Shown piece after piece: positions 5,008 through 44,821 of a stretch of DNA of 64,000 nucleotides. The stretch spans positions 26,991 through 90,990 of the forward strand of contig CAZKIH010000014.1 of the NCBI GenBank assembly GCA_964552775.1, written 5' to 3'. How positions within the stretch are numbered: position 1 is the stretch's first letter; the number at the start of each line of letters is the position of its first letter. Both the position numbers and the translations under genes were made by a program. A model generated the notes under the pieces. That model was given only the letters and a program-made list of their open reading frames with translations, searched no databases and was not told where the DNA came from. The DNA comes from an uncultured Ignavibacteria bacterium (GTDB lineage Bacteria; Zixibacteria; MSB-5A5; CAIYYT01).

Positions 5008-5157
5008 GTATAGCTCCCTGAAAAATTCTGCATTTGCGATTCGGACGGCGCCGCGAAGACACACCCTGCCTTGAGGGACTGTTGACTAACCCGTCTTATC
5101 CGCAGAGTGCGCGGCGGTCGTCCACGCCCGCCGCGCCAGAACGCGCCCGCGTTTCGG

Positions 5158-5364
5158 TCACGACATCTCACAGCTTGAAGCCGCACACGAGAGGCAGAAA
5201 AAGCAACTCCCCTCGTGAATCACACTGCCGCCGCATTCAGCGCAAAAGCGATCGCCGCAGTCGGCACAAAGATAATTATTGCCACTCGGCACCAGCATTC
5301 CACCGCAGCAGCATTCCAGTTGATTGGTTTCCAGCACATTCATTTCACTTTCCTTTCGCGTCAT
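5158..5364 (-). CDS. Small Cys-rich zinc-ribbon protein (hypothetical), directly upstream of the helicase on the same strand
   Basis: MTRKESEMNVLETNQLECCCGGMLVPSGNNYLCADCGDRFCAECGG...CFFCLSC, paired CxxC motifs; short, no homolog recognised. Confidence 0.35.
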   Translation of the reverse strand: MTRKESEMNVLETNQLECCCGGMLVPSGNNYLCADCGDRFCAECGGSVIHEGSCFFCLSCAASSCEMS

Positions 5365-5737
5365 CGGAAAGCCGCCTAACCGATGTCGCCTTGGCGGAGC
5401 GGGCCGCACGCCCGCTCCGAGGGTTTCCCGTGGTAACCGTGCTTGTTTTTAACGTGGAGTCAATATACTGCACATTTGTGCAGTCGTCAAGAAGATTCTA
5501 AAACTTAATCGAAAATAAGTTCACAGCTTTGAGTCCGCCTGGCAGGAATGGATACCTCGCCGCAGGACTGGTTATATGGTAGTCGGTTATGTTGTTTATG
5601 GACAACATATTGCCGCGATTATCGGAAGCTAAACTTGATAGGCGTTTACCTTAACGACCGAGGCCGCTCCTACCAAAGAAAGGGTGTCAAGCGGGTAGTT
5701 GCGGCAGGAGCGGCCTTAATTGTGACTGTGCCCCAAG

Positions 5738-5777
5738 GTCCTTTTAAACGCCGATGGGAGCCGGCTACCCGGCTCCC
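5738..5777 (-). terminator. Candidate Rho-independent terminator of the lipoprotein gene
   Basis: GGGAGCCGG-CUAC-CCGGCUCCC perfect 9-bp stem at 5756-5777, followed on the minus strand by AUCGGCGUUUAAAAGG. Confidence 0.4.
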
Positions 5778-5820
5778 GTTGGAGGCTGACTAAGTGTCTC
5801 AAACGATCTCTAAGGGATTC

Positions 5821-6459
5821 TCAATCAAAGTGACGCTCTGTATCGGAATCCATCCCTTGATCGCCAATCTGGTAACTGATGCCATACTTTGAAAAGTGGG
5901 ACAGCAGGAACACACCCTTGCCATCCAACACCTGGGACGGCGCTACCGTCTCCCAGCCAATGCCATCACCGTCTTCAACAGACTCATCGAAATAAAGAAG
6001 TGTGGCGATTGATCCGTCGGGCCTGTCAATCAACTGGGTCAGCTCAAGCGGCAGGTTGAACTGTAGGCCGCTCGGACCACACTCGTAGGTGTAAAGATCA
6101 GTTGTCCTGCCAATCCGATATCTCGTGCCAATGATCGTTATAGTAACGGAGTCGTTCACAGCGCCTGGACGAACAACAAAGTCGACTTTCTTGCCCTGAA
6201 TAAAGATGCGCGAATCAGCGCCTTCAGGCATGGCCAGAAAGATGGTCGTATCAGCGGCGACGAATACGGTGTCATTGACGAACGGATTGCCTCCGCCATT
6301 CTCATTGCCATTGCCGGGCAACAGCTCCTTGTTGTTTTCGGCGGCTGTTGGTGCAGCCGGATTCTCGGCACAACCAAAAAACAGAATCGCGATGGCGCAC
6401 GAAACAAGTATAATCAGCGCGACAAGCCCTTGATCTCTTAATTGCTGGTTCGTAAACAC
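5821..6459 (-). CDS. Hypothetical lipoprotein
   Basis: MFTNQQLRDQGLVALIILVSC...: n-region, h-region and LVSC lipobox; Gly/Asn-rich linker; no recognised domain. Confidence 0.6.
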   Translation of the reverse strand: MFTNQQLRDQGLVALIILVSCAIAILFFGCAENPAAPTAAENNKELLPGNGNENGGGNPFVNDTVFVAADTTIFLAMPEGADSRIFIQGKKVDFVVRPGAVNDSVTITIIGTRYRIGRTTDLYTYECGPSGLQFNLPLELTQLIDRPDGSIATLLYFDESVEDGDGIGWETVAPSQVLDGKGVFLLSHFSKYGISYQIGDQGMDSDTERHFD

Positions 6460-28730: not shown

Positions 28731-29051
28731 CGGTATACCCCACCGTTTTATCCATGTTATTTGAACTCAAGAATAGCAACCCGACCCTCCATGTCAAGGA
28801 CGAAAACGCCTATTTGCACCAATTCTTGGTCAAAAGCGCTATCCCGGCCTCGAGTCAAAGCCATCAGAATTTTTCTACAAATCCGCCCCTTCGCTCCTAT
28901 AGAGAATAAAGAGTCCACAAAAATGGTCAAATCACGCCATAACTGGTGTGTTTGGCAGACATTGACAGACATTGGAGATACTGCCCTGATGACGCCAAAT
29001 CCAAGAACCGAAATTGGGCAATTGCACATTTAAAGGGCCGAAGGAGAAGTT

Positions 29052-32000
29052 ATGAAGAATCTTTCTCACATCTTAAGTGAACGGAGGGAGGCAACTATGT
29101 CGTTGTTAAAGGCAAAAAAAATCGTCTGGCAGGTTTTGATACTAAGTGGCTTGCTCTTGTCGAATTCGTTGGTGTTCGGGCAAGTATCACCGCCCTGCAA
29201 ATTCGGTAACTCAGTTGAATTTCACCAGATTGGTGATTCAGTCAAAGTACCGTCAGTTGCCCTTAACAACATGCCGCAGGGGACAGTGGAGGCATGGGTC
29301 AAATTCGACAACTTGAATAGTGCTTCCCCACACTTTGGTGAAATGTTCATAGTTAGCAGGGCGAAGGCACCAGGCGGGGACTTCCGTCTCGAAAAGGCAC
29401 GCACTACTGTACCGGAAGCCAACAAGTTCGTATTTAGTCTGGATAATGGAAATACTAACCTCTATTCAACGACGGTTGCCCAAGTCAAGACATGGTATCA
29501 TGTAGCTTGCACCTGGGATGGAGTCGAGTGGCAAATTTACGTCAACGGTATCTTAGAAAACTCGCTGCCGGATACCAGGACTCTTCCAAACAACAACTCA
29601 TTGTCGGTATTGGTGGGCGCCTACAACTATTCGGTTGCGGCGACAGCAGTTTCGTTCGATGGCACGATCGATGAAATTCGAATAAGTAATATTGTTCGTA
29701 CCCCGTCCGATTTCTGCCTGACTGGCGAATGTGGATCAGACGACAATACGGTGGCACTCTGGCACTTCAACGAGACAACGGGAGCAGCCGCATCCGATGC
29801 GACGGGGCATGGGTATGACGGAATGATTCATGGGGCGACGCATGTGAATTGTACTGCGTCAACGGCAGCCTGCAGCAATTTCGACACCCCAGCTAACCTT
29901 GCTGCGGATTGGATTACCGTTCAGGGCAGCCATTCCGTGGTAAGTACGCCGACTCCGCATCAAGGCACGGGTGCTCTTAGAACTCAGGAACCGGGCGGTT
30001 CTAATCCCTACTCCCTCCTGAAGCACCGCGACCTTCAAGCAAGTGGTGGTGAATACAATTTCTGGTTCTACCAGTCGAACACGGTTGGCGGGGCTGTGTT
30101 CATGCAATCCGACCCTGGGGGAGGAAACCCTTCGACCGGGGCCGCGCGGTGCTATCGGATGGGATTCACAGCAAACGACGGGTTTGCCGGGGGTACCATG
30201 GATTTCGGCAGGATCAATTCTGACGGCACTTCGACGCAGCTCTGGGGATATCATGCGCCTCCCTTTGTGATGAATCAGTGGGTAAATTTCTTTGTCCGCT
30301 TCGGAGAGGGTGGCGTAATCCAAGTTGGATTCATCCAGGGCAACACTAGCTTCAGTCAATCTTTCGTTGACCCGGATCCAATCACGCAGCCCGGTGAATT
30401 CTACCTGCTCTCCGATCGAACAAATTACTTCGATGACGTATGCTTCAACCCAGTCGCAGTTGAGCCGGCGAATTACAGCGAAGCAGAATTTGGTGGTTCG
30501 CACTGCTTCAATGGCGTCGACGATTACATTACGGTTGCCAACAGTCCTTCACTCGACCTTGGGTCAACCTACACGATTGAGGCCTGGATCAAAATGCGAA
30601 ACTTGCCATACTTGGACGACTATACAATTGTATCTAAATGGGCCGGCAGCGAGTCGGGTGGATATCTATTTGCAATCACGGGCGGTTTTTCTCCCCGTGG
30701 CAGATTGATGCTCTATGCCGGTTTCTCCGTATATGCGACTTCAGCTATGACTCTTACCCCTGAAGTCTGGCATCATGTGGCTGTGACTTACGACGGACAG
30801 GCTATAAGGTTCATCGTTGATGGCACCTCGGAAGAAGCAGTAGATGCGCCAGGAGGAACGGCAACTAATAGTGTGCCTTTGACAATCGGTATCAACGCTA
30901 ACCACTTTACAGATCCAAGTGAGGATCCTAACTACTTCAGAGGGCAGATTGATGAAGTGCTGATCAGCAATCGGGTGAAATTGCCATCAGAGTTCTGCCT
31001 CACGGCACCTTGCATCCCCGATTTACACGGGTCTACTGCTGCGCTCTGGCATTTCGATGAGGCAGACATTTCTGACGCCAGCGGTAGGAATAATTCGGGA
31101 ACGGTAGTGGGGAGTGGGTGCGAAGGATGCCCCGGCTCTCCTGTGCTGACAGCTGAAGCTACCTGCAATAATATCACTCTGTATTGGGACGAAGTCGCAA
31201 ATGCCGATCAATATCAGATCATCAGAAACGACATTCGCATAGTCAGTCTTCCCTCGGGAACAACGACGTATATTGATAATACCGTGATTCAGGGTTCACC
31301 CAACTATCAGGTAAGAGCACTTAGGGCTGGCTGCAGTGACGGCACCTCAGAATTAGTACATATTGGGCTTCTGGAAATTCCTGCTCCCCCATCGCAAATC
31401 GAGACCACACCACGCCTCGCCGCCATTGAGGTTGAGTGGCAGGCTGTACAAAAGGCAACTTCTTATGAGCTGTATGAAGATGACCAACTCATCGGAAGAA
31501 CAATCGACACAAAGTACCTTAGTAGTGTGAGTCGCGGCACTCATTGCTACCAAGTGAAATCTGTTAACGATTGCGGCAAGAGTGAATTGTCCAGTCCTGT
31601 GTGCGACGAGGCTCGTTTTGAAGTATCATGTTGTGGTACAGTTTACGCAGATAGAAATGGAAATGAAGTCCATGATGTGGGCGAAGAGATCGCGGGCGCC
31701 AGTGTCTTTGTATTGGATCCAGAATTCGGCTTCTTCCCTTTGCACGCAACCTCCAGCGATCCGTCGGGCAGATTCTGCCTGACAGTACCATACCATAGAC
31801 TTGGGCAACTATGGGCTTACGCAGGGGACTACAGCAGTGAAAAGGAGGCAATGTTCTTCACTCGCGATGAAACAGACCACAAACTAGCGACCTTTAGATT
31901 CGGCCCGTGCCTCCATTTGTCTGCGGCCGACCAGTGCCTTCAGTCAACTGCAACGCTGGTTCCTGTTCTTAGTGCCGTCCCAACCGGAATGGGACTCATG

Positions 32001-33815
32001 AACAAAATGTGCGAAATTCGCGACTGTTTTGAAAAAGGCGATTATCTCGGAATGGCCAATCATATCCGAGAAATGAGGGAGCTATCTGCGTCATTTGTTT
32101 TGAAGCTGGCCGCTGCAATACCCGGTCTTGGTTTTCTCCAGTTAGCCGAGATCAAGAAGTACGCAAATGCCTCTGTAGATTGCCAAACCACTCTGTTGGA
32201 AGAGCAATGTCCCCTCTTGGATGTGATTTGCCTAGCTGCAAATGGTGGTGCCTGTGATTATGACCACCCATACTTCATGGTATCAAAGCGAAGCCCTGTA
32301 ACTCTGCAGATCGTCGGTCAAAACGGCGACACTATTAGCGATGAAGTGGAAGCAACTAGCGGTGCTAACCCAGGTAGTGTTGGAGGGTTTCTGGTCAGCA
32401 CTGATCGAATTCACTCTCTCGGCATGGCAATGGACAGCCTGCAGTCATACACGATCGTAGCTACAGGCGATGAGACCTCAAGTGCTGGCACTACATGCGG
32501 AATGTCGCTCGTTTTGTATCCGGGTACCGGCCGAGCATTTAGCCTAATTTTCGAGGGCATACCTGTGGTTCCGGGTACTCGCGCCAGTATCACGATTGGG
32601 GACAGAGGCAGCAGAGTATCAGCGGCAAGTTTAGATTACGATGGAGATGGGACTCCCGAATCCGTTGTTCTGCCTTCTGCATCCAGCGATAGTAATACGA
32701 TTCAGATCAAATGCTTTGTGCAGGGCAATCTTTCAACCGCTGGCATTGCCGCCAACGTCTACGATGCCGCCGATAATCTAGTTGCTTCGCTCGTTACCGA
32801 TCAGAACGGCCGCTGCGAAACCAGCAAACTCATGATCGGTGAGTATCGAGTGGTTCTCGAATCACCCCTCGGCTACACCTGCAACGAACCAATCAAGACA
32901 GTAGTATTAATCACCGACTCGGCAACTGTCAATTTTGAATTGACCAAACTCAATATTACTCCCCAGCAGCGCTCTCGCGACTATTGGGCTGGTCAACTCA
33001 CTAAGGTCTTGCAGAATAAACGTGCGGACTTCACCAAAGCGCAATTCTCGAGATTCGCCGGCTTGATCTCGCAACACTTCAACGACAACCTCCTAAACTC
33101 AGTTGCAACTTATGTCGTTCCACAACCGGCAAATCAAAACGACAGTCTGATCATGATGAAGAAGCTCCTGACCTTTGGCTGCACCGAAGTCAACGAGCCA
33201 TTCCTGAAGAAGGTCGCCAAAGGCGAACTTGTTGCTCTGATGCTCAATGTGGCTGCCGGCAAGGTAAGTCAGACTCACATTGTTTCTCACGATGGAGTGA
33301 CTCTTAGTCAGGCAATCACCTATTGTGACATGCTGATCAACGAGGCCGATTGCCCGATAGGCACTGTACCATCGTGGTTCATGCCCGGATATCCTAACCG
33401 ACTTGAGATAATGCGCTATCTCAAGGCGGCCTTTGTGGCGGGCCTGATCAACATCGGAGTCACGTTGCCTTCCGGGCAGATTCCGCTGGACATCATGGAC
33501 ATCGCGTACAAAGAGTTTGCGACTCAACCAATCCCGACCGCTTTTGAATTGAGCCAGAATCATCCCAACCCCTTCAATCCAATCACGACGATTCGTTTTG
33601 CCATCCCGCAGGCAGGGAATGTGCAACTTGAAGTTTTGAATGTGATCGGACAGCGGGTTCGCACGCTCGTCGATGAGACCAAACCGGCCGGTACCCACGA
33701 AGTCCAATGGGATGGACGCGACAGCAACGGCAATGCTGTCTCATCTGGTGTCTATCTCTATCGCATCAAGGTAGGCGAATTCACCGCGACCAAAAAGATG
33801 GTGCTGATGAAGTAA
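29052..33815 (+). CDS. Giant (1587 aa) T9SS-secreted protein with two LamG/concanavalin-like lectin domains, FN3-like and SdrD-B/Cna-B-like modules, T9SS type-A C-terminal sorting domain
   Basis: AAGGAG RBS then ATG; signal peptide; two LamG-like modules (TWYHVACTWDGVEWQIYVNG, EVWHHVAVTYDGQAIRFIVDG); CCGTVYADRNGNEVHDVGEEIAGASVFVLD; C-terminus LSQNHPNPFNPITTIRFAIP...GVYLYRIKVGEFTATKKMVLMK. Confidence 0.85.
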   Translation: MKNLSHILSERREATMSLLKAKKIVWQVLILSGLLLSNSLVFGQVSPPCKFGNSVEFHQIGDSVKVPSVALNNMPQGTVEAWVKFDNLNSASPHFGEMFIVSRAKAPGGDFRLEKARTTVPEANKFVFSLDNGNTNLYSTTVAQVKTWYHVACTWDGVEWQIYVNGILENSLPDTRTLPNNNSLSVLVGAYNYSVAATAVSFDGTIDEIRISNIVRTPSDFCLTGECGSDDNTVALWHFNETTGAAASDATGHGYDGMIHGATHVNCTASTAACSNFDTPANLAADWITVQGSHSVVSTPTPHQGTGALRTQEPGGSNPYSLLKHRDLQASGGEYNFWFYQSNTVGGAVFMQSDPGGGNPSTGAARCYRMGFTANDGFAGGTMDFGRINSDGTSTQLWGYHAPPFVMNQWVNFFVRFGEGGVIQVGFIQGNTSFSQSFVDPDPITQPGEFYLLSDRTNYFDDVCFNPVAVEPANYSEAEFGGSHCFNGVDDYITVANSPSLDLGSTYTIEAWIKMRNLPYLDDYTIVSKWAGSESGGYLFAITGGFSPRGRLMLYAGFSVYATSAMTLTPEVWHHVAVTYDGQAIRFIVDGTSEEAVDAPGGTATNSVPLTIGINANHFTDPSEDPNYFRGQIDEVLISNRVKLPSEFCLTAPCIPDLHGSTAALWHFDEADISDASGRNNSGTVVGSGCEGCPGSPVLTAEATCNNITLYWDEVANADQYQIIRNDIRIVSLPSGTTTYIDNTVIQGSPNYQVRALRAGCSDGTSELVHIGLLEIPAPPSQIETTPRLAAIEVEWQAVQKATSYELYEDDQLIGRTIDTKYLSSVSRGTHCYQVKSVNDCGKSELSSPVCDEARFEVSCCGTVYADRNGNEVHDVGEEIAGASVFVLDPEFGFFPLHATSSDPSGRFCLTVPYHRLGQLWAYAGDYSSEKEAMFFTRDETDHKLATFRFGPCLHLSAADQCLQSTATLVPVLSAVPTGMGLMNKMCEIRDCFEKGDYLGMANHIREMRELSASFVLKLAAAIPGLGFLQLAEIKKYANASVDCQTTLLEEQCPLLDVICLAANGGACDYDHPYFMVSKRSPVTLQIVGQNGDTISDEVEATSGANPGSVGGFLVSTDRIHSLGMAMDSLQSYTIVATGDETSSAGTTCGMSLVLYPGTGRAFSLIFEGIPVVPGTRASITIGDRGSRVSAASLDYDGDGTPESVVLPSASSDSNTIQIKCFVQGNLSTAGIAANVYDAADNLVASLVTDQNGRCETSKLMIGEYRVVLESPLGYTCNEPIKTVVLITDSATVNFELTKLNITPQQRSRDYWAGQLTKVLQNKRADFTKAQFSRFAGLISQHFNDNLLNSVATYVVPQPANQNDSLIMMKKLLTFGCTEVNEPFLKKVAKGELVALMLNVAAGKVSQTHIVSHDGVTLSQAITYCDMLINEADCPIGTVPSWFMPGYPNRLEIMRYLKAAFVAGLINIGVTLPSGQIPLDIMDIAYKEFATQPIPTAFELSQNHPNPFNPITTIRFAIPQAGNVQLEVLNVIGQRVRTLVDETKPAGTHEVQWDGRDSNGNAVSSGVYLYRIKVGEFTATKKMVLMK

Positions 33816-33844
33816 CAGATTTTCCAAGAGAGGCGGGGAGGAAG

Positions 33845-33886
33845 AGAGCAGGCTTGACACACGTTGAGCCTGCTTTCGTTTTTTGG
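33845..33886 (+). terminator. Rho-independent terminator
   Basis: AGCAGGCT-TGACACACGTTG-AGCCTGCT followed by TTCGTTTTTTGGG. Confidence 0.7.
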
Positions 33887-34092
33887 GACCACTCAGACGC
33901 CCACTGCATTGTTCAGGCAAACAAGCGACTGGATTGACTTGCATACAATATCGGACTCGCTCAATTCCGATACCGATCAAAGTAGTTGCGAATGTGACTC
34001 ACCATCACTATCTTTCTATCTGCATAGACCATACCTATTCTAAGATCAGCACTATAAGCGATGTCGGACGGCAGGCAGACTAGCGAATTCTC

Positions 34093-35160
34093 ATGACTTC
34101 GGAATCAGACCACAAAGGAGCGGATGACAACCAGGCTCTGAAGAACTTTCTTCAGCACGCCGGAGATCGTCATGCATTCATAGCCTTCTATCGGCTGTGT
34201 CACAATCTCGCGGTTGGCAGCTTGGGGTATCTTCAAAGGCGCGGCTATCGACTGCCCGTCGGACCGCACAATTCGTTCTCGAGTATTTCTGATTTGGCTA
34301 TCGACATTCTCGGCACATTCCTGCGCGTCGAAAAGAACAGAAAGTACGGAGTGATATTTGGATATTTCGCAAGGGAAGGCATTGTTGAATTCGATGGCGT
34401 TGATCCGCTAGTCTTGATGTACAAGTTCCGGGCACTCCTTCTGGGCTACGTCAGGCAGGAACTGTATCGCATCACTCAGCAGGAGTATCCCGATGCCGCG
34501 GATCTGAAAAGGCGGCTGAATCGAATCCTCTCTGGCGACAATTATTCCACACTTTCACTCGACGGGAAATCTGACCTGGTCTGTCTGAAGAATGCGAATG
34601 AAATCACCTTTATGAGTAAGCCACTAATCCCCTCCAACATCATGGATTACGTAGCTGAAGAGGCGTATCTCACCACTCGCACGATCGAGGAGTGGTGTGC
34701 CAAGATATTCGAGCTGTTGGCGCTTCGCGACGAATACCTCACAGCCATCCCACGCCATCAGCTATTGGCGGCAGCGGTTAAGATCTCAGGCACTCATCTC
34801 GAGATCGACGCCATACCTCCATCAGCCCTCCCAACGCCTGAGCAAATGATGATTGCTTCGGAACTGGAGAAATTGCGAGAAGAGGTTTCGGTATTTGTCC
34901 GTACCGCCGTAATAGACAGCTTTGTCCGTAAGGGCAGGATATCGGCAGAAACAGGGGTTAACTTTCTGAAGGCTGCCGAGCTCTTTCTGGCCGACAAGTG
35001 CAACGGTGGCCAAGTTGACCTGTTGCCCGCCTATTTCCGGGAAACCATGCCGGAATCCGAGCACGAGAAATATCTGAATCACTACAAGTACGTCTTCGAG
35101 ACAGTCATAAATCGGGCTGAGGAAGAATTTGTCGAACGGATTAAGAGAAAATTTCGATAA
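34093..35160 (+). CDS. Divergent sigma-70 (ECF-like) family protein with long C-terminal region
   Basis: N-terminus ALKNFLQHAGDRHAFIAFYRLCHNLAVGSLGYLQRRGY...ISDLAIDILGTFL resembles sigma-70 region 2 (inference from pattern); a weak region-4-like stretch LEKLREEVSVFVRTAVIDSF...RISAETGVNF; first gene of a 3-gene operon. Confidence 0.45.
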   Translation: MTSESDHKGADDNQALKNFLQHAGDRHAFIAFYRLCHNLAVGSLGYLQRRGYRLPVGPHNSFSSISDLAIDILGTFLRVEKNRKYGVIFGYFAREGIVEFDGVDPLVLMYKFRALLLGYVRQELYRITQQEYPDAADLKRRLNRILSGDNYSTLSLDGKSDLVCLKNANEITFMSKPLIPSNIMDYVAEEAYLTTRTIEEWCAKIFELLALRDEYLTAIPRHQLLAAAVKISGTHLEIDAIPPSALPTPEQMMIASELEKLREEVSVFVRTAVIDSFVRKGRISAETGVNFLKAAELFLADKCNGGQVDLLPAYFRETMPESEHEKYLNHYKYVFETVINRAEEEFVERIKRKFR

Positions 35161-35211
35161 TTCGGCAATTGTAACACTACTCTCAGGACGAGGAGGGTCA
35201 AAGGACTCACT

Positions 35212-36054
35212 ATGCATCCATTGCGCGAAGAACTAAATCGGCTCGCCGAAGGACTCGAGACGGCCGAGTCTATAATTGTCCACGTCCGTGATTGCGAATT
35301 TTGCAGCACTTACTGTGAACGATTCAAGATGCTATTGTCTTCCGTCGAATCGGCCGAAGTCCTTGATCCATCAGCAATCGCTGACATTGCAGCAGGCATC
35401 TTTGAAGCAACTACTTCATCGAAGATCATTCCTTTATCGCGAATGATCCATGACCGACTGTCGGCTCAGCGCCTTCTGGCAGCCGACGGCGGGCGTGCCA
35501 ACGAACCCTCTCTGCAGAACCTGTCAACATGGTATTCACAGGAGCAGGACATCGTTGTTCGCGTAATGCGTGACACAAGGCGTGCTGTCGATTTTCTGCA
35601 AGTAATCGCTCCCGACGAATCACTGATGGCGCACGTACTTATTGAATCGGTAGATGCGAGGCTTGCTTACGTGACAGACAACCTCGGCAAAGTAGAATTC
35701 GGTATGATGCAGATCGAGGATATCGCCTCGGTGAAGTGGCAGATTAAACTCCCCGAGGCCGTCTTCCGACTCGACTTGCTTGCCTACGATCCAGAACATA
35801 TCAAGAGCGAGACTGATACGATTCTCGTCTCTCCGGGCGGAGATAAGGTGAGCATCAAGCTGCAGAATAAGACCGAGGGCAAAGAAATTCTTGTCCGTGT
35901 GCTTGCACTCGATGGGAACGACCGTTATCAGCACGCGCGTATTGCCATTACCTCGAATAGCGGATCAGAGATTAAGGCGGTCACTCCAAAAGATGCCATG
36001 AAGTTCGCGCTGATTGACGCAAACACCGAAATCGGCATCCGGATATTCGACTAA
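35212..36054 (+). CDS. Putative zinc-finger (ZAS, zf-HC2) anti-sigma factor, soluble
   Basis: LREELNRLAEGLETAESIIVHVRDCEFCSTYCERFKMLL carries the H-x3-C-x2-C ZAS signature at the N-terminus; no TM segment; stop is 1 nt before the next gene's ATG. Confidence 0.6.
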   Translation: MHPLREELNRLAEGLETAESIIVHVRDCEFCSTYCERFKMLLSSVESAEVLDPSAIADIAAGIFEATTSSKIIPLSRMIHDRLSAQRLLAADGGRANEPSLQNLSTWYSQEQDIVVRVMRDTRRAVDFLQVIAPDESLMAHVLIESVDARLAYVTDNLGKVEFGMMQIEDIASVKWQIKLPEAVFRLDLLAYDPEHIKSETDTILVSPGGDKVSIKLQNKTEGKEILVRVLALDGNDRYQHARIAITSNSGSEIKAVTPKDAMKFALIDANTEIGIRIFD

Positions 36055-36055
36055 T

Positions 36056-38443
36056 ATGGCAACGTCACCGGTAGAATTCGCGGCGGCATTCGAGCGACTT
36101 CGCAACCATCTGTCAGTTAATTTCGAGGACGACAGCTCAATCCTTCAGCTTCTTGAGTTCTGGCCAAAGCTCGCGCCACTTCGCGAGAATCCCGCATACT
36201 CCAGTTATGTCGCCGAGTATCTTGCCTTTCTCGAAGCGGCACTCACAGATGACAATCTTCGCGATCTGTCGATTGATGAACTAACTCAACTCGAAGCGCT
36301 TTGCCTGGACTCAGGCATGAAGGTCGACCTCCTTCAGTCGGTGCAGAAACAGATTGCCCGCCAGTTCTTCTTTGTTGGAAAACTTGATGAAGGTCTGGCA
36401 GCTTGTATTCGAGTGTCGAAGGAAAACGCGGTAGTCGAAAGGCGGCCCTCTCCGGAGAGCAGCCTGACCGAATTTGAATCATTCCGGGCGTTTGCAAATA
36501 CCATCGACGACCAGTGGCCCAATACCAAGATACTGCTTACTGACATTGCTTCGGAGTGGCAAAGCGAACGCGAATTTGTGTGGTTCGACCGAATCAATTG
36601 TCTGTTTGTGCGGATGACTGCCATCGACGATAAACCGCGCGGTAAGCTGCGTGCGCTGACAGGGTCAGTCGAAGAGCGTGGTCGCAATTGCCAGAACGAT
36701 GAGGTCACATTCGACAACCAACTTCGGGCGTCGGATGATCCAATGGTCGGCGTCGCCTATCAGGCAATGGTCGCCACTCGCCATTACCTTCGGTCGACGG
36801 GGCACCCGCGGCTCGGCTCGGTCTACTACCACGCCCATTTCTCAGTGGCCGACAAACAGACAGCCTATACCGGAGATTCAATCGGCATTGCGACCGCACT
36901 ATTGGCCTACGCGCAGCTGTTGCACACTGAAGCTTTGCGCCATGACCACCTGCTTCCCGGCGACGTCGCCTGTACTGGCGGTATCGATGAAGCAGGAAAG
37001 GTCACGCCAATCAATGGCGATACCCTTCACGCCAAAATCGAACGGGCGTTCTTCTCGCATATCAAATATCTGGCCCTGCCTGTAGCTAATGCAACGCAAG
37101 CGCGACGCTACCTCGACACCCTACAAATCGAATATCCCGCGCGGCAGCTTGTCTTGTTGCCAGTGAACTCATTGAGTGCTGCCATCAACGATCACAACAT
37201 AGTTCGCCCCGAGAAGGTCTGCATCGGCGAGTTCGTCGCCAAGAAGGCAGTCAGGTACTCACGTATGACGAAAGTACAAGTGCCGATGCTGTTGGTGTTG
37301 GCGTACTTGTTGTTGTGTGTGATTTACCCGAAGGCGTGGGTGGGGTTTGATTGGAGGCTCGAGACTATTGAGTTGGATGGCAATCGATTCAAGGCAATCA
37401 ACTCAGATGGGCAGATTATCTGGAAATCCTGTGATTTTCGCGGGGCACTTGACTCGGCAATGACTTTCGGACCACACGTTGCATTAGGTAGGCGGTACCT
37501 ATGTCCGACTGACGTTGACTCGAATGGCAGAGTGGAATTATTCGCCTCTCCGAAAATACTCGAAAGAAATGTCTGCAGCGCAGAACTCTATTTGTTCGAC
37601 TCGGATGGCAAACAGTGTTGGCCCAATCCGGTCAGAATGTTTGAACCGACAAGCTATCCGGGAGACATCTCATGGAATGATATTGGGCAGACCCTTGACT
37701 ATGTTTCGCGCGGGATCTCAATCGTTGAGGTTCAGAATTACGGCAAGTGCGTCTTTTCAACGGCGGAAGTATCGGGTCCTGCCAGAGAACAATTCATGAC
37801 GATTGATGCGTCCGGTCAAAAGGTCTCCGGCCCATATCTTATGACAGGAAGTGAAGTCCTCCGCCCGCCACTGCAGGTTGACGAAGACGATGACGGCTGG
37901 AATCACCTAATTGTATTTGGGGTCAATAGGCGAGAGGATAGAGCGTGCCTAATCGTGCTCGACCCGGCTAAACTTAGCGGCGTGAGTCCGCCCTACGATG
38001 AAGAGCTGTTTATCGTCTCTGGAATGCAGAAGGGAAGCCAGCTCTACTACGTGTCATTTCCAGAGACAAGGCTTTCGCAAGGGACCGAATATACGAATTT
38101 TGTTTCGCTGATAGTGTTCGACCCACAATCCAGTTATCCGTACAAGATCACTTTGCGGGAAGGTACGAATCGGCTTGTTGGTGATTCGATGGTAAATGTG
38201 ACAGATAACGATACTCGGCTGCCTGCTGCTGTTGTCACCTTGGATTCGAATTTCATTCCATTTTCGTACCTGTTTGGCACCGGAAGCTTTGCACACATTA
38301 ACTCTATTCTAATATCGAGCGGAAAGCAGCCTTACCCTGATCAGGACTCGCTTCAAGCTGCCCAGCTAAACGACATCATCGTATACCATGGTGATTCCAT
38401 CGTCCATCACCCAGCCGCCGGAATATTCTACAAGAGACCCTAG
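36056..38443 (+). CDS. Membrane protein with cytoplasmic Lon-like (S16) Ser-Lys protease domain, one TM helix and about 370-aa extracytoplasmic beta-rich domain
   Basis: YHAHFSVADKQTAYTGDSIGIATALLAYAQLL...DVACTGGIDEAGKVTPINGDTLHAKIERAFFSHIKYLALP aligns by eye with the Lon P-domain (DGPSAG...VAMTGEITLRG.VLPIGGLKEK...IP); TM VQVPMLLVLAYLLLCVIYP; start ATG 36056 follows the preceding stop. Confidence 0.7.
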   Translation: MATSPVEFAAAFERLRNHLSVNFEDDSSILQLLEFWPKLAPLRENPAYSSYVAEYLAFLEAALTDDNLRDLSIDELTQLEALCLDSGMKVDLLQSVQKQIARQFFFVGKLDEGLAACIRVSKENAVVERRPSPESSLTEFESFRAFANTIDDQWPNTKILLTDIASEWQSEREFVWFDRINCLFVRMTAIDDKPRGKLRALTGSVEERGRNCQNDEVTFDNQLRASDDPMVGVAYQAMVATRHYLRSTGHPRLGSVYYHAHFSVADKQTAYTGDSIGIATALLAYAQLLHTEALRHDHLLPGDVACTGGIDEAGKVTPINGDTLHAKIERAFFSHIKYLALPVANATQARRYLDTLQIEYPARQLVLLPVNSLSAAINDHNIVRPEKVCIGEFVAKKAVRYSRMTKVQVPMLLVLAYLLLCVIYPKAWVGFDWRLETIELDGNRFKAINSDGQIIWKSCDFRGALDSAMTFGPHVALGRRYLCPTDVDSNGRVELFASPKILERNVCSAELYLFDSDGKQCWPNPVRMFEPTSYPGDISWNDIGQTLDYVSRGISIVEVQNYGKCVFSTAEVSGPAREQFMTIDASGQKVSGPYLMTGSEVLRPPLQVDEDDDGWNHLIVFGVNRREDRACLIVLDPAKLSGVSPPYDEELFIVSGMQKGSQLYYVSFPETRLSQGTEYTNFVSLIVFDPQSSYPYKITLREGTNRLVGDSMVNVTDNDTRLPAAVVTLDSNFIPFSYLFGTGSFAHINSILISSGKQPYPDQDSLQAAQLNDIIVYHGDSIVHHPAAGIFYKRP

Positions 38444-38617
38444 AAAGGCATCGCCGCAATTCGGTTGCCAACAAAGTCCGCAGCTTCAGACACCCCTGAT
38501 TAGTGCGACTTGGCAAAACTACATCTCTAACGGGAAAGAATCTACAAGAACGCGACTCGCGGGCTACTCTTACCATTGTGACAGGAGTTTCAAATCACAA
38601 GAAGTAGGAGGAACGCA

Positions 38618-40657
38618 ATGCGTTTGAACAAATTGTTTCTAACGATCTGTGCAGTTCTAGGATTGAGTTTGGCATCAATCCCAACTGCGGCACAACCGTC
38701 GCCCGTGGCGAGGTATCTGTTTAACGGCAATGCAAACGATGAGAGCGGAAACGGACACAACGGTATTGTCACTGGTGCGATCCTGGTTCAGGATCGACAC
38801 GGCAACGACAGTGGGGCATTTGGCTTCAGTGCAGACGGCGACTGCATTACGGTCCCTCACTCGCCTGCACTTTATCCTGAATCTGGAGTTATTGTCGAAG
38901 GCTCGATCTATCCAACGGCCTATCCTCCAACCGATCATCAATTTGGACACTACATGGTATTGGGTAATCAAGGCTATGACCTCAGCATACGAAGTGATAG
39001 CACAATCAACTTCTATATTCTAAAGTCACTTTTGCCAGGCGCTGATTGGGAGCGAATTCCATCACTAAGCCCTATTCCGTTGAACCAGTGGACGAGCCTG
39101 CGCGGGGAGTACAGTTTCTCCACGGGACTCATGAGATTCTTTGTGAATGGAGAATTGCAGGGCACTAGGTCCATCAGCGTTTCTGGTTGGCTGGATCCTA
39201 ATTCGGATCTCAAAATTGGTGGACACTTGTGGGAAGGAGTGTCGTCTTTCCGAGGCAGTATTGATGACATCACAATCTGGGATTGGTGGCAGCCATCTGA
39301 CACCCTCCGCATCGGCAACCCAACCTGCCTACAGTCTGTTCTGCCAACCCAGCAGGCAGTTCCGATCTATCTCGACAATCCCGACACCGTCAAGGGCCTC
39401 GACATTCCGCTCAAATACGACTGGGCGAACGATCCCTTAAGTATCAGCTTCGCAGGAACCCGAATGGATGGTGTCTCAGGCGTACACTGGTCAATCGACG
39501 CAGATTCAAATCGTCTGCGCATTGTTTGGGGCTGGCAGGGCGACCCGAGCGAACTACTTTTACCGACCGATGCAACTTCAGCCAACCTGCCAATAGCGAA
39601 GATCGTCTTTTCTGCCGACTATGCCTGCATTGACGATTACACCTCGCCACCGGACACGACCTCAATCTGGGTAGGTGAAGACCTCCAGAGATTGTTGATC
39701 GTTGACAAGAATGCCGTCGAATACGTTCCCGTGGTCGATACCACCAGCACTCGAACGCGCCACTATCGAGTCGGGGATGCCAATTTCAATCAGTCCATAA
39801 ACATCTCGGATGCCGTGTTCCTCATCAACTATATCTTCGCAGCCGGAACAACTCCGGCCTGCTTCACCGCAGCTGATGTCAACGGTAACGGTATCATCAA
39901 TATCTCAGATGTTGTCGCGTTGATTAACTACATCTTCTCCGGTGGTGCAACTCCGGGTTCAAGCCAACTTTGTAGCTATGTCGGCCCTCTTTTCAAGTCA
40001 CAACCCGCCTCAGCCAATGTCGAGTCACAGGAATCTGTTACCCCCAATCTGAAGACAATCGACATCACAACGCAGACGACCTCTGAACTTCAGGCTGCTC
40101 AACTGACATTCGACATTCACGGGAAGGTGCAGAAAATTGAAGTCAACAGCATCGATCAGCGATTGCAAGTCTTTGGCGGCACCGCTGACCGCGAATACCG
40201 TGTTGGCTTAGTTGACTTAACAGCTGCCACGACTCTTCCTGCCGGAGAACATCAACTTCTGACAATTACTTACTCAGGCGAAGGCGAATTGACGATGCGC
40301 GAGGCTGTTATCGTTGACTCCGATGCCGAGCCGATGGTCACAACAATTCAATCGACCAAGGCAGAGCAGAGTCTGCCGACCGAGTTTACCTTATCGCAGA
40401 ACCAGCCCAATCCCTTCAATCCGACTACTGATATCAGCTTCAGCCTTCCACGTACGGGAGCCGTGAAGTTGGTAGTCTACAATATCCTTGGCGCGGAGAT
40501 CGCAACTCTCGTCGACGAAGTCCGGGCGGCTGGGATACACACGGTGACCTGGAACGGACAAGACAAGTCCGGCCGGGCGGTAGCATCGGGAGTCTATCTC
40601 TATCGACTGAGCACGTCAGACTTCTCGGCCACGAAGAAGATGGTGTTGATGAAGTAG
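38618..40657 (+). CDS. T9SS-secreted scaffoldin-like protein: LamG domain, two cohesin-like modules, dockerin-like repeat pair and T9SS type-A C-terminal sorting domain
   Basis: Signal peptide; LamG-like N-terminus; cohesin-like AVPIYLDNPDTVKGLDIPLKYDWANDPLSISFAG... and ...AQLTFDIHGKVQKIEVNS...; dockerin GDANFNQSINISDAVFLINYIFAAG...DVNGNGIINISDVVALINYIFSGGATP; C-terminus LSQNQPNPFNPTTDISFSLP...YLYRLSTSDFSATKKMVLMK. Confidence 0.8.
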   Translation: MRLNKLFLTICAVLGLSLASIPTAAQPSPVARYLFNGNANDESGNGHNGIVTGAILVQDRHGNDSGAFGFSADGDCITVPHSPALYPESGVIVEGSIYPTAYPPTDHQFGHYMVLGNQGYDLSIRSDSTINFYILKSLLPGADWERIPSLSPIPLNQWTSLRGEYSFSTGLMRFFVNGELQGTRSISVSGWLDPNSDLKIGGHLWEGVSSFRGSIDDITIWDWWQPSDTLRIGNPTCLQSVLPTQQAVPIYLDNPDTVKGLDIPLKYDWANDPLSISFAGTRMDGVSGVHWSIDADSNRLRIVWGWQGDPSELLLPTDATSANLPIAKIVFSADYACIDDYTSPPDTTSIWVGEDLQRLLIVDKNAVEYVPVVDTTSTRTRHYRVGDANFNQSINISDAVFLINYIFAAGTTPACFTAADVNGNGIINISDVVALINYIFSGGATPGSSQLCSYVGPLFKSQPASANVESQESVTPNLKTIDITTQTTSELQAAQLTFDIHGKVQKIEVNSIDQRLQVFGGTADREYRVGLVDLTAATTLPAGEHQLLTITYSGEGELTMREAVIVDSDAEPMVTTIQSTKAEQSLPTEFTLSQNQPNPFNPTTDISFSLPRTGAVKLVVYNILGAEIATLVDEVRAAGIHTVTWNGQDKSGRAVASGVYLYRLSTSDFSATKKMVLMK

Positions 40658-41143: not shown

Positions 41144-42421
41144 ATGTCAGACGAAATCAAACTGGAGAATGAAAGACTAAAGCGCGCCATCGCAGAGCTA
41201 AGGATTCTGAATGAGGTTAGCGTTGCGATTAGCGGTGCAATTGGTGTTGGCGCGATTACCGACCTAATTGTCAGTAGGTGCCTCCAACACATTGGTGCCG
41301 AACAAGGTGCGGTCTGGCTCCTTGACCAACTTGACAAAGCCGCCCCCCCGAGGACTTTCATCAGAGTAATGGAGACCGGCAATGATTCGATTCCATTCAA
41401 AGTGGGAGCCAGTCTTGTGGGGTTGGTAATCAAGAACAAGAATCCCTTGATCGTAAACGACATTCGGAGGGACAGCAGGTTTGTAGATCTTGCTCACGAG
41501 TATGAGAATCTTCGTTGTCTAATAGCTGTACCACTGCGACTCAAAGACACCTTGATCGGCGTTATTTGTCTACTAAATAAGAGCGACGGCCAAGAATTTT
41601 CGAGTGATGATGCCCGACTGATGACAATTGTTGCATCTCAATCAGCTCAGACGATCGAGAACGCGCGCTTGTATGAGGATGAGCGACGGCTGATGGCTCT
41701 TGAGGAAGACCTCCGGACTGCGCGTATTATCCAATATTCGCTGCTGCCACGCGAAAAGCCTAAGGCAGACAACTATGATATAGCGGGACTCTATGAACCG
41801 GCGCAAATGATAGGGGGAGACTATTTTGACTTTATTCCGATCGATAAGGACCATCTCGGAGTCTGTATAGCCGATGCGTCAGGAAAAGGAACTTCCGCCG
41901 CGCTCCTCATGGCCAGCCTACAATCCGGTTTGCGAGGGCAGGCTATATTGAACTTACGTCCCTATGAAACAGTCAACAACCTCAATTTGATGCTCTCCCG
42001 ATTCCTAGTGTCAGGACGATTCATCACTCTCATCTACGGAGTTCTGGACGTGCGCCGAAACACCTTCACTTATGTGAATGCAGGACACTGTTACCCAATA
42101 TTCGTTGGCAATGATGGTGCTGAAGAACTAAAGGGTAGTGACTTAGTGCTTGGCGTTATCCCAGACTTCAAGTATTCGGAGACGGAAGTAGCTCTGTACC
42201 CGGGTGAGTCAATTTTGCTATACACCGATGGCATAACTGAAGCCACTAATTCTGCGGATGAGCAGTATGGAGAACAACGCCTTCTCGATCTGGTCAGAGC
42301 AAATCGAAGTCAATCCACAACAAACCTCGTGCAATCGATCAAAGACTCTGTAGTTCGCTTTCAAGCTGATGTTCCGCAGAGTGATGACATCACTCTCGTT
42401 GGCGTGAAGAATCCTCTGTAA
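41144..42421 (+). CDS. GAF-domain PP2C-type Ser/Thr phosphatase (RsbU/SpoIIE family)
   Basis: N-terminal coiled coil plus GAF-like region; PP2C motifs GGDYFDF, CIADASGKGTSAAL, YTDGITEA. Confidence 0.85.
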   Translation: MSDEIKLENERLKRAIAELRILNEVSVAISGAIGVGAITDLIVSRCLQHIGAEQGAVWLLDQLDKAAPPRTFIRVMETGNDSIPFKVGASLVGLVIKNKNPLIVNDIRRDSRFVDLAHEYENLRCLIAVPLRLKDTLIGVICLLNKSDGQEFSSDDARLMTIVASQSAQTIENARLYEDERRLMALEEDLRTARIIQYSLLPREKPKADNYDIAGLYEPAQMIGGDYFDFIPIDKDHLGVCIADASGKGTSAALLMASLQSGLRGQAILNLRPYETVNNLNLMLSRFLVSGRFITLIYGVLDVRRNTFTYVNAGHCYPIFVGNDGAEELKGSDLVLGVIPDFKYSETEVALYPGESILLYTDGITEATNSADEQYGEQRLLDLVRANRSQSTTNLVQSIKDSVVRFQADVPQSDDITLVGVKNPL

Positions 42422-42490
42422 AAGTCGAGAACTTGAATTGATTGCAGCGGAATCGGCCTTCAAAGCGTGAGCCGACATTAAGATTGGAAT

Positions 42491-44821
42491 GTGGGCCATT
42501 CTAATTGGACCCTTTCGGCTTCCGGACTCACTGAATCACCTTGTTTACTACGCATTTGCGACCTATTTTGCAGGCAAGAGAAGGCAGGCTTTTTGGTGAT
42601 CTGCGATTCTCGAGGTAAAAGCACTATAGATTCAGAAATCTGGGAAGAACAATTGTTAAGCAACGGATCACTATTTGGCAGCTACCGAATTGTCAGGACA
42701 CTCGGTCAGGGTGGAATGGGGGTTGTCTATGAGGCGGTCGACGAGCGACTTGATAGAACTGTTGCGCTCAAACTGATTGCGGACAAATTTGCGCGCGATC
42801 CAGAATATCGATTAAGACTTATGCAGGAAGCCAAGAGCGCCGCTAGAATCAACTCTGAGCGCATTGTAAAAATCTGGGAATGTTCGGTGCTTGAAGATGT
42901 TCCTTTTATCTCCTACGAGTATGTCTCAGGCCGTGGTTTGGACGAAGTAATGTTGGAGGTTTCTTTTGCAGAGAAACTCAGGCTTGCCCGTGAAGTAGCG
43001 GAAGCGCTGCACATCGCACATTCGTTCGGAGTGGTACACCGCGATCTGAAACCAGATAATATCATTGTGTCCGATAGCGGCTCAGTCAAGGTTCTTGACT
43101 TTGGTCTGGCAAAAGTCGTTGCCGCAGACACAGTCGACAGTCAGGGAAACATCGAAGGCACACTTTTCTATATGTCGCCAGAGCAGATTTTGGGTACGAA
43201 GCAAACGTTCTCGACAGATATCTTCAGCTATGGTGTGATTCTCTATGAACTGCTCACTGGTCACAAGCCATTTGACGGTGATTATTCCGCGGCTGTCATT
43301 TACTCAATATTACATGAAGATCCGATTCCTCCTTGCGAACTATTGCCTTCATTGCCACTCTGGATTGACCCACTGGTTCTTAAGCTCTTGGCCAGGAATG
43401 TCACCGAACGCTTCCCCGATATGCGTTCAGTATTGGATTATCTTGACACGCAGCAATCGGCAGATTCCTCAACTGACAGTACCCGCTACCAGAAGGCCCG
43501 ACGGCGAGCTGTAACTGTAATGCATCTGAGAAACCTATCTGGTGATCCATCGTGGGACTACTTCTGTATTGGCTTCACGGAAGATTTGATTCGTGAGATT
43601 TCGTTGAGGATCGACGCAGTGGTTTCGGTTGAACCGGCCGGTGTTGCTGCACGAGAAATCGCAAGCGTATTTCGCAGATGTCGAGCGGATTATGTGATTA
43701 CTGGAACTCTGATGAGATGGCAAGACGAAATCAAGCTTGGCTTGAGTATTTACGGTGAAAGTGGCCATAAGTTAATTTATGGCGAGCAGTTTAGGGGTGA
43801 GATTAAACAACTTTTCGAGTTGCTTTTCCATGCGGCTCGTAGTGCTTCGGTTGCGTTGGCCAAATCCAGCGGTGGGGCTTTCGTTGATATCGATCGGATT
43901 CCGAGCGCGGACATCTCGGCCTACGACTTCTATCTGAAGGGTAGAAGCTACTATCACACGAGCAAGCCAGATGACCTCGCATTCGCGATTAGTATGTTTA
44001 ACAGAGCATTAGACCTTGATCCTGGATTCGCCCTAGCAAGAACCGGCCTGTCCGATGTCCATGCGTTTCAGTACAATGCCTACTATGACCGACGCCAAGA
44101 GAAGATCTCATTAGCGATACAAGAGGCCCAACAAGCACTGGCAATAGATCCGCTTCTGCCAGAGGCACATCGTGCGTTGGGCCGCTGCTATATGTTCATT
44201 GGCGATTTTAACAACGCTGAGATATCTCTGCAGAAATCAATTGAGATTGCGCCTAAGTTCTTTCTGGGTTACAGGGCTCTTGCGTGGTTAAAGGATATGG
44301 CCGGCGATGATGAGGCTGCTTTGGCGTGGGCAAAGAAGGCTCTCGAACTGGCACCAACTGATCTCGAAACGCTCTTGCTCTTGGGCTTGCTGTATCTCGA
44401 CATGCGCAAGTTCACACTGGCTATGGCGACACTTCAACGTGCAGTAGAATTGGGGCCAGACTACGGGCGAGCCTATTACTATCTTGGTGTCGTTTTCATG
44501 AAGCTTGGTGTACCGGACCTTGCTCTCGAGAACTTTCAGTGGGCGATTAAATACAAAGGAGATCCGAACAGTCACATCGACGCCGGATACGCTTGCATGG
44601 TGCTGGGAAACTACAATCAAGCGAAGTTATTCTTTAGTGAATCTCTCGAATACGACTATTTGCCATTTATCGCACACTACTTCCTCGGGCTCCTCTCTTT
44701 GATTGGCAATGATGCCGACGCGGCAGCAAATCAATTCGAAGCCGCGGCAATATCTTCCGAGCAGTATTTGACTGGGGATCCGGCAAAAACTACGTCGCAA
44801 GTTACCGAGCCCTTTCATTAG
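42491..44821 (+). CDS. Ser/Thr protein kinase with C-terminal TPR repeats; the 3' end appears frameshifted (TPR-like sequence continues in another frame to about 45057)
   Basis: YRIVRTLGQGGMGVVYEA, VALK, HRDLKPDNI, DFGLAK, SPE; TPR-like repeats from about aa 480; true start uncertain (possibly internal GTG). Confidence 0.8.
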   Translation: MGHSNWTLSASGLTESPCLLRICDLFCRQEKAGFLVICDSRGKSTIDSEIWEEQLLSNGSLFGSYRIVRTLGQGGMGVVYEAVDERLDRTVALKLIADKFARDPEYRLRLMQEAKSAARINSERIVKIWECSVLEDVPFISYEYVSGRGLDEVMLEVSFAEKLRLAREVAEALHIAHSFGVVHRDLKPDNIIVSDSGSVKVLDFGLAKVVAADTVDSQGNIEGTLFYMSPEQILGTKQTFSTDIFSYGVILYELLTGHKPFDGDYSAAVIYSILHEDPIPPCELLPSLPLWIDPLVLKLLARNVTERFPDMRSVLDYLDTQQSADSSTDSTRYQKARRRAVTVMHLRNLSGDPSWDYFCIGFTEDLIREISLRIDAVVSVEPAGVAAREIASVFRRCRADYVITGTLMRWQDEIKLGLSIYGESGHKLIYGEQFRGEIKQLFELLFHAARSASVALAKSSGGAFVDIDRIPSADISAYDFYLKGRSYYHTSKPDDLAFAISMFNRALDLDPGFALARTGLSDVHAFQYNAYYDRRQEKISLAIQEAQQALAIDPLLPEAHRALGRCYMFIGDFNNAEISLQKSIEIAPKFFLGYRALAWLKDMAGDDEAALAWAKKALELAPTDLETLLLLGLLYLDMRKFTLAMATLQRAVELGPDYGRAYYYLGVVFMKLGVPDLALENFQWAIKYKGDPNSHIDAGYACMVLGNYNQAKLFFSESLEYDYLPFIAHYFLGLLSLIGNDADAAANQFEAAAISSEQYLTGDPAKTTSQVTEPFH

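Follow-up and report, generated by a model that had tools for sequence, protein, structure and literature searches.

A membrane-anchored Lon-type protease encoded with a ZAS protein and a candidate sigma-like partner in Zixibacteria

How might a signal from outside the cell release a transcription factor when the anti-sigma protein that would hold it is soluble and the protease that would cut it sits in the membrane? Known routes from the outside to a sigma factor include cleavage of a membrane anti-sigma factor (DegS/RseP, PrsW/RasP), conformational relays, partner switching and phosphorylation. A three-gene cassette on contig CAZKIH010000014.1, from an uncultured bacterium of the Zixibacteria lineage, raises the question of a further route. 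It lies within a stretch of 64,000 nucleotides (nt), hereafter the window, in whose numbering all coordinates are given unless another locus is named, and encodes in order an all-helical protein, a protein of the zinc-binding anti-sigma (ZAS) type and a Lon-type protease with one transmembrane helix. On balance we lean, by a narrow measure, towards the cassette being a self-contained transmembrane signalling device, in which the gene 1 product would be sigma-like and the Lon domain of gene 3 would cleave the gene 2 product. The cassette probably switches on neighbouring surface-protein genes. Its genes and its 5' boundary are as follows.

34093-35160, + strand: gene 1, 355 amino acids (aa), all-helical; presumably bound by the ZAS domain, and a candidate for a highly divergent sigma-like factor
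35212-36054, + strand: gene 2, 280 aa; predicted soluble anti-sigma protein of the ZAS (zf-HC2) type, its C-terminal domain ~190 aa long
36056-38443, + strand, ATG at 36056: gene 3, 795 aa; membrane-bound Lon-type protease
33844-33884, + strand: intrinsic terminator of the upstream surface-protein gene, marking the 5' boundary of the module

The open reading frames, coordinates and peptides quoted in the original prediction were all recovered as given, including HVRDCEFC in gene 2 and GDSIG and HAKIERA in gene 3. That prediction had also called the operon tight, and this held: genes 2 and 3 meet at TAA-t-ATG, and the intergenic gap between genes 1 and 2, given as 50 nt, measured 51 nt. A strong terminator closes the upstream gene (33844-33877 plus a T-run; stem of 15 bp with 7 G-C pairs), so the gene 1-3 unit begins afresh, and no terminator of comparable strength was found between gene 1 and the gene that follows gene 3. 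Genes 1 and 2 share a reading frame (35212-34093 = 1119 = 3 x 373), with one stop codon and 17 codons between them; this common frame is probably a coincidence. All three protein families are currently annotated as "hypothetical", and Pfam, NCBIfam and PADLOC hold no models for them. Since scans of the single proteins against these three collections yielded almost nothing, family profiles were used instead.

The three genes stay together in related genomes, as had been supposed, and do so almost universally. We fetched 55 loci, 51 of them from a scan of one genome per species and four as contigs looked up by protein, and called their genes with hidden Markov models of the three families. The 51 scanned loci are nearly all Zixibacteria metagenome-assembled genomes (MAGs), some of them labelled Ignavibacteria and one Abyssobacteria. 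Genes 1, 2 and 3 were found in one order and on one strand in 42 of the 55 loci (three are repeats, leaving 39-40 distinct), and several genomes hold two copies of the module. The exceptions include truncations at contig ends. The gap between genes 2 and 3 is only -4 to +7 nt in 38 loci, and from this spacing the two genes are taken to be translationally coupled.

The membrane protease and its soluble partner

The architecture of the gene 3 product is laid out below.

36056-36580, + strand: N-terminal helical domain (residues 1-175), possible substrate-docking domain
36581-37255, + strand: Lon (S16) P-domain, with Ser275 (36878-36880) and Lys327 (37034-37036)
36872-36886, + strand: GDSIG, which holds S275
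37028-37048, + strand: HAKIERA, which holds K327
37274-37336, + strand: single transmembrane helix, residues 407-427 (Kyte-Doolittle 2.16)
37337-38443, + strand: extracytoplasmic FG-GAP-type (beta-propeller-like) sensor domain, assigned from Pfam and profile matches

A word-based search returned 47 homologues of gene 3, all unnamed or "hypothetical", across which G273, S275, T307, G308 and K327 are invariant. Read from this alignment, the resulting GxS...TG...K pattern corresponds to the layout of the Lon active site. The gene 3 profile matched the protease domain of Archaeoglobus fulgidus Lon (E 0.004) through the K327 segment, pairing K327 with the Lys of the QKIEAA segment, which we take to be the catalytic Lys of that enzyme. 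Pfam Lon_C matched 17 of the 47 relatives at E <= 1 (best 7e-4). An AlphaFold2 model was made of residues 1-405 (predicted local distance difference test, pLDDT, 87.6; predicted template modelling score, pTM, 0.85), with residues 1-175 forming a helical repeat. The Lon (S16) P-domain of gene 3 is thus genuine in fold and its Ser-Lys pair invariant, and the dyad first proposed from the GDSIG and HAKIERA peptides is borne out. We found no AAA match for gene 3 in Pfam, NCBIfam or the PDB, and residues 1-175 lack AAA+ features; the protein would therefore act like an ATP-independent Lon-type protease rather than a canonical Lon (LonA, LonB or LonC).

The predicted topology, one transmembrane helix followed by a beta-rich domain outside, was likewise upheld. 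The 15 residues before the helix contain 5 K/R and no D/E, and the 15 after it 1 K/R and 4 D/E, which by the positive-inside rule places the N-terminus inside and the C-terminus outside. The outer half matched an FG-GAP "hemolysin-related" propeller (6mlt_A, E 2.4e-5) and also YesW in profile searches, and Pfam recognised FG-GAP_3 in 21 and FG-GAP in 13 of the 47 members. The two halves of the protein have different histories: against its nearest relatives, the window's gene 3 product is 63-70% identical in the cytoplasmic half and only 14-35% in the outer half, whereas against another clade the outer half reaches 32-44% and the cytoplasmic halves only 35-39%. This mosaic ancestry points to exchange of the sensor between lineages, and such a swap would fit a modular input domain. 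Two cytoplasmic cysteines are also invariant in all 47 homologues, namely Cys182 (36599-36601) at the start of the Lon domain and Cys389 (37220-37222) just N-terminal to the transmembrane helix.

A sub-threshold PADLOC match of the gene 3 product to CARF_LON (E 0.0095) could be taken to make the cassette an anti-phage defence module of the CalpL/CARF-Lon kind. We rejected this explanation and consider it very improbable. No SAVED or CARF domain was found in the module, nor any CRISPR linkage or any CRISPR or cyclase gene nearby; the gene 3 sensor is extracytoplasmic; and the conserved neighbour of the module is a surface protein exported by a type IX secretion system (T9SS), described in the next section.

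Two short motifs of gene 2 lie at these positions.

35281-35304, + strand: H-x3-C-x2-C zinc-ligand motif HVRDCEFC, at the N-terminus of gene 2
35476-35487, + strand: LAAD linker motif, a candidate site of cleavage, which would leave an LAA C-degron exposed

For gene 2, only eight close homologues came out of a word search. Genes lying upstream of distant gene 3 homologues turned out to be its homologues too, and gave an alignment of 40 sequences with invariant H24, C28 and C31 and an H2 that is at least 90% conserved. The gene 2 profile matched the anti-sigma factors RsiW (5wuq_C, E 0.0045), DdvA, RslA and ChrR, with ChrR 6-55 aligned to gene 2 residues 2-51, and Pfam zf-HC2 was recognised in 13 of the 40 members (best E 6.8e-6); searched singly, the protein of the window gave no zf-HC2 match. 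There is no transmembrane segment in the gene 2 product (hydrophobicity maximum, Kyte-Doolittle, 1.14), and the gene 1 product also lacks a hydrophobic transmembrane-like segment (maximum ~1.1 for both). Judged by its ligands, profile matches and hydrophobicity, gene 2 is predicted to encode a soluble anti-sigma protein of the ZAS type, in agreement with the original prediction of a ZAS signature and no membrane helix.

Apart from the zinc ligands, the only invariant residues of gene 2 are A90-A91 of an LAAD(G) motif and T155, G159 and W176 of the C-terminal domain. Within LAAD, the two alanines do not vary across the 40 sequences and D92 is kept in at least 90% of them, while the flanks are variable and rich in insertions and deletions. 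By analogy with the anti-sigma factor CalpT, which is cut at LAA|A (see below), we regard LAAD as a candidate cleavage site.

A promoter-like motif and the neighbouring surface-protein gene

The intergenic regions downstream of gene 3 have in common the motif TTCyACAA-N16-CTAyT. In the window, this motif and the features around it are placed as follows.

38541-38568, + strand: P4, TCTACAA-N16-CTACT, an exact match, 50 nt upstream of the gene 4 ATG
35154-35181, + strand: P2, TCGATAA-N16-CTACT, 2 mismatches to TCYACAA-N16-CTAYT; runs over the gene 1 stop codon, its end lying 30 nt ahead of the gene 2 ATG
38618-40657, + strand: gene 4, a 679-aa secreted protein with LamG, dockerin and a T9SS C-terminal sorting domain
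33986-34014, + strand: candidate housekeeping (sigma-70-type) promoter of gene 1, TTGCGA-N17-TATCTT, a weak match in the window (8/12)
28874-28901, + strand: a third copy of the motif, with 1 mismatch, lying 150 nt ahead of a 1587-aa surface-protein open reading frame (29052-33815)

The motif is essentially confined to the module. Over 678 kb of loci, there were 20 exact matches just after gene 3 (-60 to +400 nt of its stop, + strand) versus 2 elsewhere, with ~0.3 expected by our own estimate, and a site with at most 2 mismatches follows gene 3 in 39 of 46 loci. The second position is the junction of genes 1 and 2, where a P2-type site (<= 2 mismatches) occurs in 25 of 40 loci as compared with ~1.8% of control windows, its CTAyT end usually 27-32 nt before the gene 2 start. 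In 62 of 71 sites a G stands four bases ahead of CTA, a position that the search pattern did not specify. Within a module, P2 and P4 agree more closely than permuted pairs do (398 identical positions versus 351.7 +/- 8.0, exceeded in 0 of 5000 permutations), a comparison in which phylogeny is not controlled.

A spacer of constant length, halves that resemble -35 and -10 elements, the placement relative to start codons and the confinement to the module are together what would be expected of the cognate promoter of an alternative sigma factor encoded by the module itself, and the gene 1 product would be the factor that reads it. Gene 1 appears to be driven differently. The most enriched hexamer upstream of it is TTGACA, and promoters of the TTGACA-N17-TATnnT type scoring at least 10/12 precede it in 16 of 38 loci, against ~1 expected (our own estimate). 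A promoter upstream of gene 1 of the autoregulated type known from extracytoplasmic function (ECF) sigma factors was rejected, the best match to the motif there having at least 3 mismatches in all 38 loci.

Gene 4, which lies behind P4, carries Pfam FlgD_ig/Por_Secre_tail matches and is therefore T9SS cargo. Its homologues form a cluster present in 23 loci, in ~21 of which they start at most ~320 nt after gene 3 on the same strand. Gene 4 is thus a conserved downstream neighbour and likely the target gene of the module. The earlier suggestion that the unit controls the surface proteins on its flanks is supported by this conserved cargo gene together with the module-specific promoter-like motif. 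The third copy of the motif fits the conserved positions outside the search pattern as well (T-run, TT.G); by itself it does not decide the matter statistically, as 0.48 sites with at most 1 mismatch are expected by chance per window. The 1587-aa surface-protein gene behind it is a possible member of the regulon. The product of that gene, a LamG/T9SS protein, is homologous to the gene 4 family, and locus L006 has the same upstream neighbour.

The window as a whole is unusually rich in very large secreted proteins (17865-22517, 29052-33815, 38618-40657 and 45271-48141), whose domains include T9SS sorting tails, dockerin, LamG, FG-GAP and beta-helix. Downstream of gene 4, at 41144-44821, lie genes for a GAF-SpoIIE (PP2C) phosphatase and a Ser/Thr kinase with TPR repeats. 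A conserved role for this pair was rejected, since the two are not conserved as module neighbours in other loci.

Gene 1 and the rival readings

Several observations weigh against the signalling device favoured here, and they are brought together in this section. Gene 1 is its weak point: no profile method links it to sigma-70. The family is large, with 610 representatives in a full HMMER scan (50% identity level, E <= 1e-3), almost all of 340-370 aa. The original prediction had read its N-terminus as sigma-70 region-2-like, and this part of it gained no support from profile searches. Pfam Sigma70_r2, r4 and ECF models gave no match at E <= 10 in 14 and in 108 members of the family; PDB sequences searched with family profiles three times, once with just the N-terminal 148 residues, yielded no sigma chain; and none of the searches recognised a sigma-4-type helix-turn-helix. 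Alignment with hhalign to an ECF profile gave a probability below 10%, which is a weak negative because the profile is thin (Neff ~2.2), having been built from Escherichia coli RpoE and three ECF genes of the fetched loci.

The AlphaFold2 model of gene 1 (pLDDT 91.4) is all-helical with one hairpin, and its pTM of 0.59 suggests several domains. Foldseek returned no significant match for this model (best E 0.42), and four of the top ten were full-length sigma factors. By eye, the N-terminus (GDRHAF..., SDLAIDILGTFL, KFRALLLGYVRQEL) gives the impression of resembling ECF regions 2.1-2.4. The C-terminal half is helical and includes the best-conserved motif of the family, D..P.YFRE.MP...H..YL..YKY.FET (35014-35157), which has no counterpart in known sigma factors. 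At 4383-5834 of locus L056, a distant relative of gene 1 (P0209; 373 aa) is followed by an 86-aa ZAS-only protein with no gene 3. That a ZAS protein again follows is independent support for the gene 1 product being a ZAS ligand. The gene 1/ZAS junction of this locus has a related element, TTCAGCA-N16-CTATT.

The motif itself raises a further difficulty. It is nearly identical in paralogous modules of one genome, whereas insulated ECF systems usually differ from one another in motif, so a shared factor encoded outside the module could read it. Taken with the missing sigma-70 signal, this near-identity gives substance to a different account, in which the protease and anti-sigma protein work as proposed and the gene 1 product is some other ZAS-bound effector, such as an RNA polymerase-binding co-factor, an activator or an adaptor. 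In that case a sigma factor or regulator from outside the module would read the motif, and the gene 1 product would modulate its action. We consider this account unlikely, though the most serious of those weighed here. ZAS domains are known in the literature to bind sigma-2 and sigma-4; the motif is laid out like -35 and -10 elements around a constant 16-nt spacer, is essentially module-only and co-varies between its two copies; and the module encodes no other candidate for reading DNA.

The remaining difficulties concern the protease and its substrate. The window's gene 3 product scored 11.4 bits against Pfam Lon_C, under the gathering score of 21.1. That gene 3 cleaves gene 2, and at which site, is suggested by analogy to CalpL and CalpT, and the assignment of LAAD to a linker is derived from the variability of the alignment around it. 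Some gene 3 homologues, moreover, stand without genes 1 and 2 upstream (L001/L011, L049, L051 and L054), and so do those of L041 and L044, where the upstream sequence is partly masked.

Such solitary copies would suit the view that gene 2 encodes a ZAS switch of the RsrA/ChrR type, one that senses redox state or zinc and answers a cytoplasmic signal, with gene 3 serving as an anchor or scaffold, or processing itself or envelope proteins. The gene 2 product is indeed soluble like RsrA, and in the window's own clade it has an extra cysteine, Cys35. We nevertheless hold this view to be distinctly improbable, because Cys35 is not conserved across the family, and the close coupling of genes 2 and 3, the triad in most loci, the invariant protease dyad and the parallel between the invariant LAAD in its variable linker and the CalpT cleavage site all speak against it. 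The solitary gene 3 copies also keep the motif, in genomes that hold a full module as well. In L001/L011 (7965, 10470; contig CAZAZQ010000007.1), the orphan gene 3 paralogue has the motif both directly upstream and downstream, and the same MAG has the full module L030. Orphan sensor-proteases of this kind may feed into the anti-sigma protein of another module.

Two neighbours of such copies are recorded here as observations in their own right. The L001/L011 orphan adjoins a divergently oriented LonC-type AAA-Lon gene, and at 4521-5469 (- strand) of L041, on chromosome CP070756.1, a canonical ECF sigma factor and zf-HC2 anti-sigma pair lies beside a partial gene 3 homologue, among masked runs of N.

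Proposed mechanism and known systems

In the signalling device that we favour, the gene 1 product would be a transcription factor of a divergent, sigma-like kind, expressed from a housekeeping-type promoter and kept inactive through binding by the ZAS N-domain of the soluble gene 2 product. The single-pass gene 3 product would sense an extracytoplasmic signal through its outer FG-GAP-type domain, and its cytoplasmic half would be an ATP-independent Lon-type Ser-Lys protease behind a helical docking domain. The signal would activate the Lon domain, probably via oligomerisation, and the activated domain would cut the gene 2 linker, the likely site being the invariant LAA|D. The ZAS fragment, now ending in LAA, would be degraded by a ClpXP-type protease, and the freed gene 1 product would direct RNA polymerase to TTCyACAA-N16-CTAyT promoters. 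Drive from P2 would re-supply the anti-sigma protein and the protease, giving negative feedback, and drive from P4 at the downstream T9SS surface-protein gene would be the output.

The fullest version of this proposal makes gene 3 a one-component FG-GAP-transmembrane-Lon sensor-protease that cleaves the ZAS protein at LAA|D and thereby frees the founding member of a new, extremely divergent ~350-aa sigma family with its own promoter class, each cassette controlling the adjacent T9SS protein and sensors having been exchanged among them. We place this version somewhat short of an even chance.

Were the mechanism true, the protease itself would span the membrane while the anti-sigma protein stays soluble, and the logic of the CalpL cascade would have been moved to envelope sensing. 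Three unannotated protein families gain a testable function, with concrete predictions in the form of a promoter motif, a cleavage site and an output gene. Because sensor domains are swapped between cassettes, the scaffold may be a reusable input/output device, and the compact four-gene cassette could serve as an orthogonal signalling part.

The nearest known system is CalpL-CalpT-CalpS, a type III CRISPR set of a Lon-type protease, an anti-sigma factor and a sigma factor of ECF-like type (bioRxiv 10.1101/2024.05.08.593097). CalpL combines an ATP-independent Lon-type Ser-Lys protease with a docking domain at its N-terminus and a fused SAVED sensor; when bound by cyclic tetra-adenylate (cA4) it oligomerises and cuts CalpT at LAA|A, after which CalpT is degraded through the exposed LAA degron and CalpS is released (bioRxiv 10.1101/2024.05.08.593097). 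The present cassette also has three parts, and gene 3 shows the same order of N-terminal domain, Lon domain and sensor. The CalpT cut falls at an unstructured, Ala-rich LAA|A, to which the invariant LAAD of gene 2 would correspond. The differences lie in all three parts. The CalpL sensor is a cytoplasmic cA4-binding SAVED domain, whereas that of gene 3 is a transmembrane helix with an extracytoplasmic FG-GAP domain; CalpT is MazF-like/DUF2080, whereas the gene 2 protein is of the ZAS type; and unlike CalpS, the sigma-like partner encoded by gene 1 is 355 aa long and not recognisably ECF.

Regulated intramembrane proteolysis (RIP), exemplified by RseA with DegS, RseP and ClpXP and by RsiW with PrsW and RasP, also ends in loss of an anti-sigma factor. 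In RIP the anti-sigma factor spans the membrane, and a site-1 protease cuts it outside before a site-2 protease (S2P), a metalloprotease, cuts it within the membrane. The proposed mechanism shares with RIP an extracytoplasmic signal leading to anti-sigma proteolysis, a C-terminal Ala-Ala degron and a cytoplasmic AAA+ protease that finishes the task, and RsiW and the gene 2 product have the ZAS N-domain in common. In contrast to RIP, the anti-sigma protein here is soluble and the membrane-spanning part is the protease; the module contains no S2P or PDZ protease, and no S2P gene adjoins it.

RsrA and ChrR are soluble ZAS anti-sigma factors that respond directly to thiol oxidation or singlet oxygen, and ChrR also has a C-terminal beta-rich domain. 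Gene 2 resembles them in solubility and in its N-terminal H/C-x(about 22-25)-H-x3-C-x2-C zinc site; unlike gene 2, they pair with a canonical ECF sigma factor and show no translational coupling to a membrane protease. Lon-type proteases associated with the membrane are known as well, among them archaeal and Bacillus subtilis LonB and ATP-independent PDZ-Lon proteins such as B. subtilis YlbL/DdcP. Gene 3 is like these in its Lon P-domain, its Ser-Lys dyad and its attachment to the membrane, and like the YlbL type in having no AAA+ module. LonB differs in its AAA+ ATPase, and YlbL in its PDZ domain and a protease domain thought to be extracytoplasmic; neither has an outside FG-GAP sensor or a gene for a dedicated anti-sigma substrate.

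The original prediction had taken a Lon-like domain fused to a transmembrane sensor and genetically coupled to a sigma/anti-sigma pair as an undescribed architecture. For the architecture this held: text searches of the literature returned no description of it, and the main text of the ECF re-classification paper mentions none of Lon, FG-GAP and Zixibacteria. As regards the coupling itself the claim was overstated, since Lon-type cleavage of an anti-sigma factor is known from CalpL and the principle is therefore not new. What is new in the Zixibacteria cassette is the combination of a transmembrane sensor-protease, a ZAS protein as its proposed substrate, a divergent sigma-like partner and a promoter motif.

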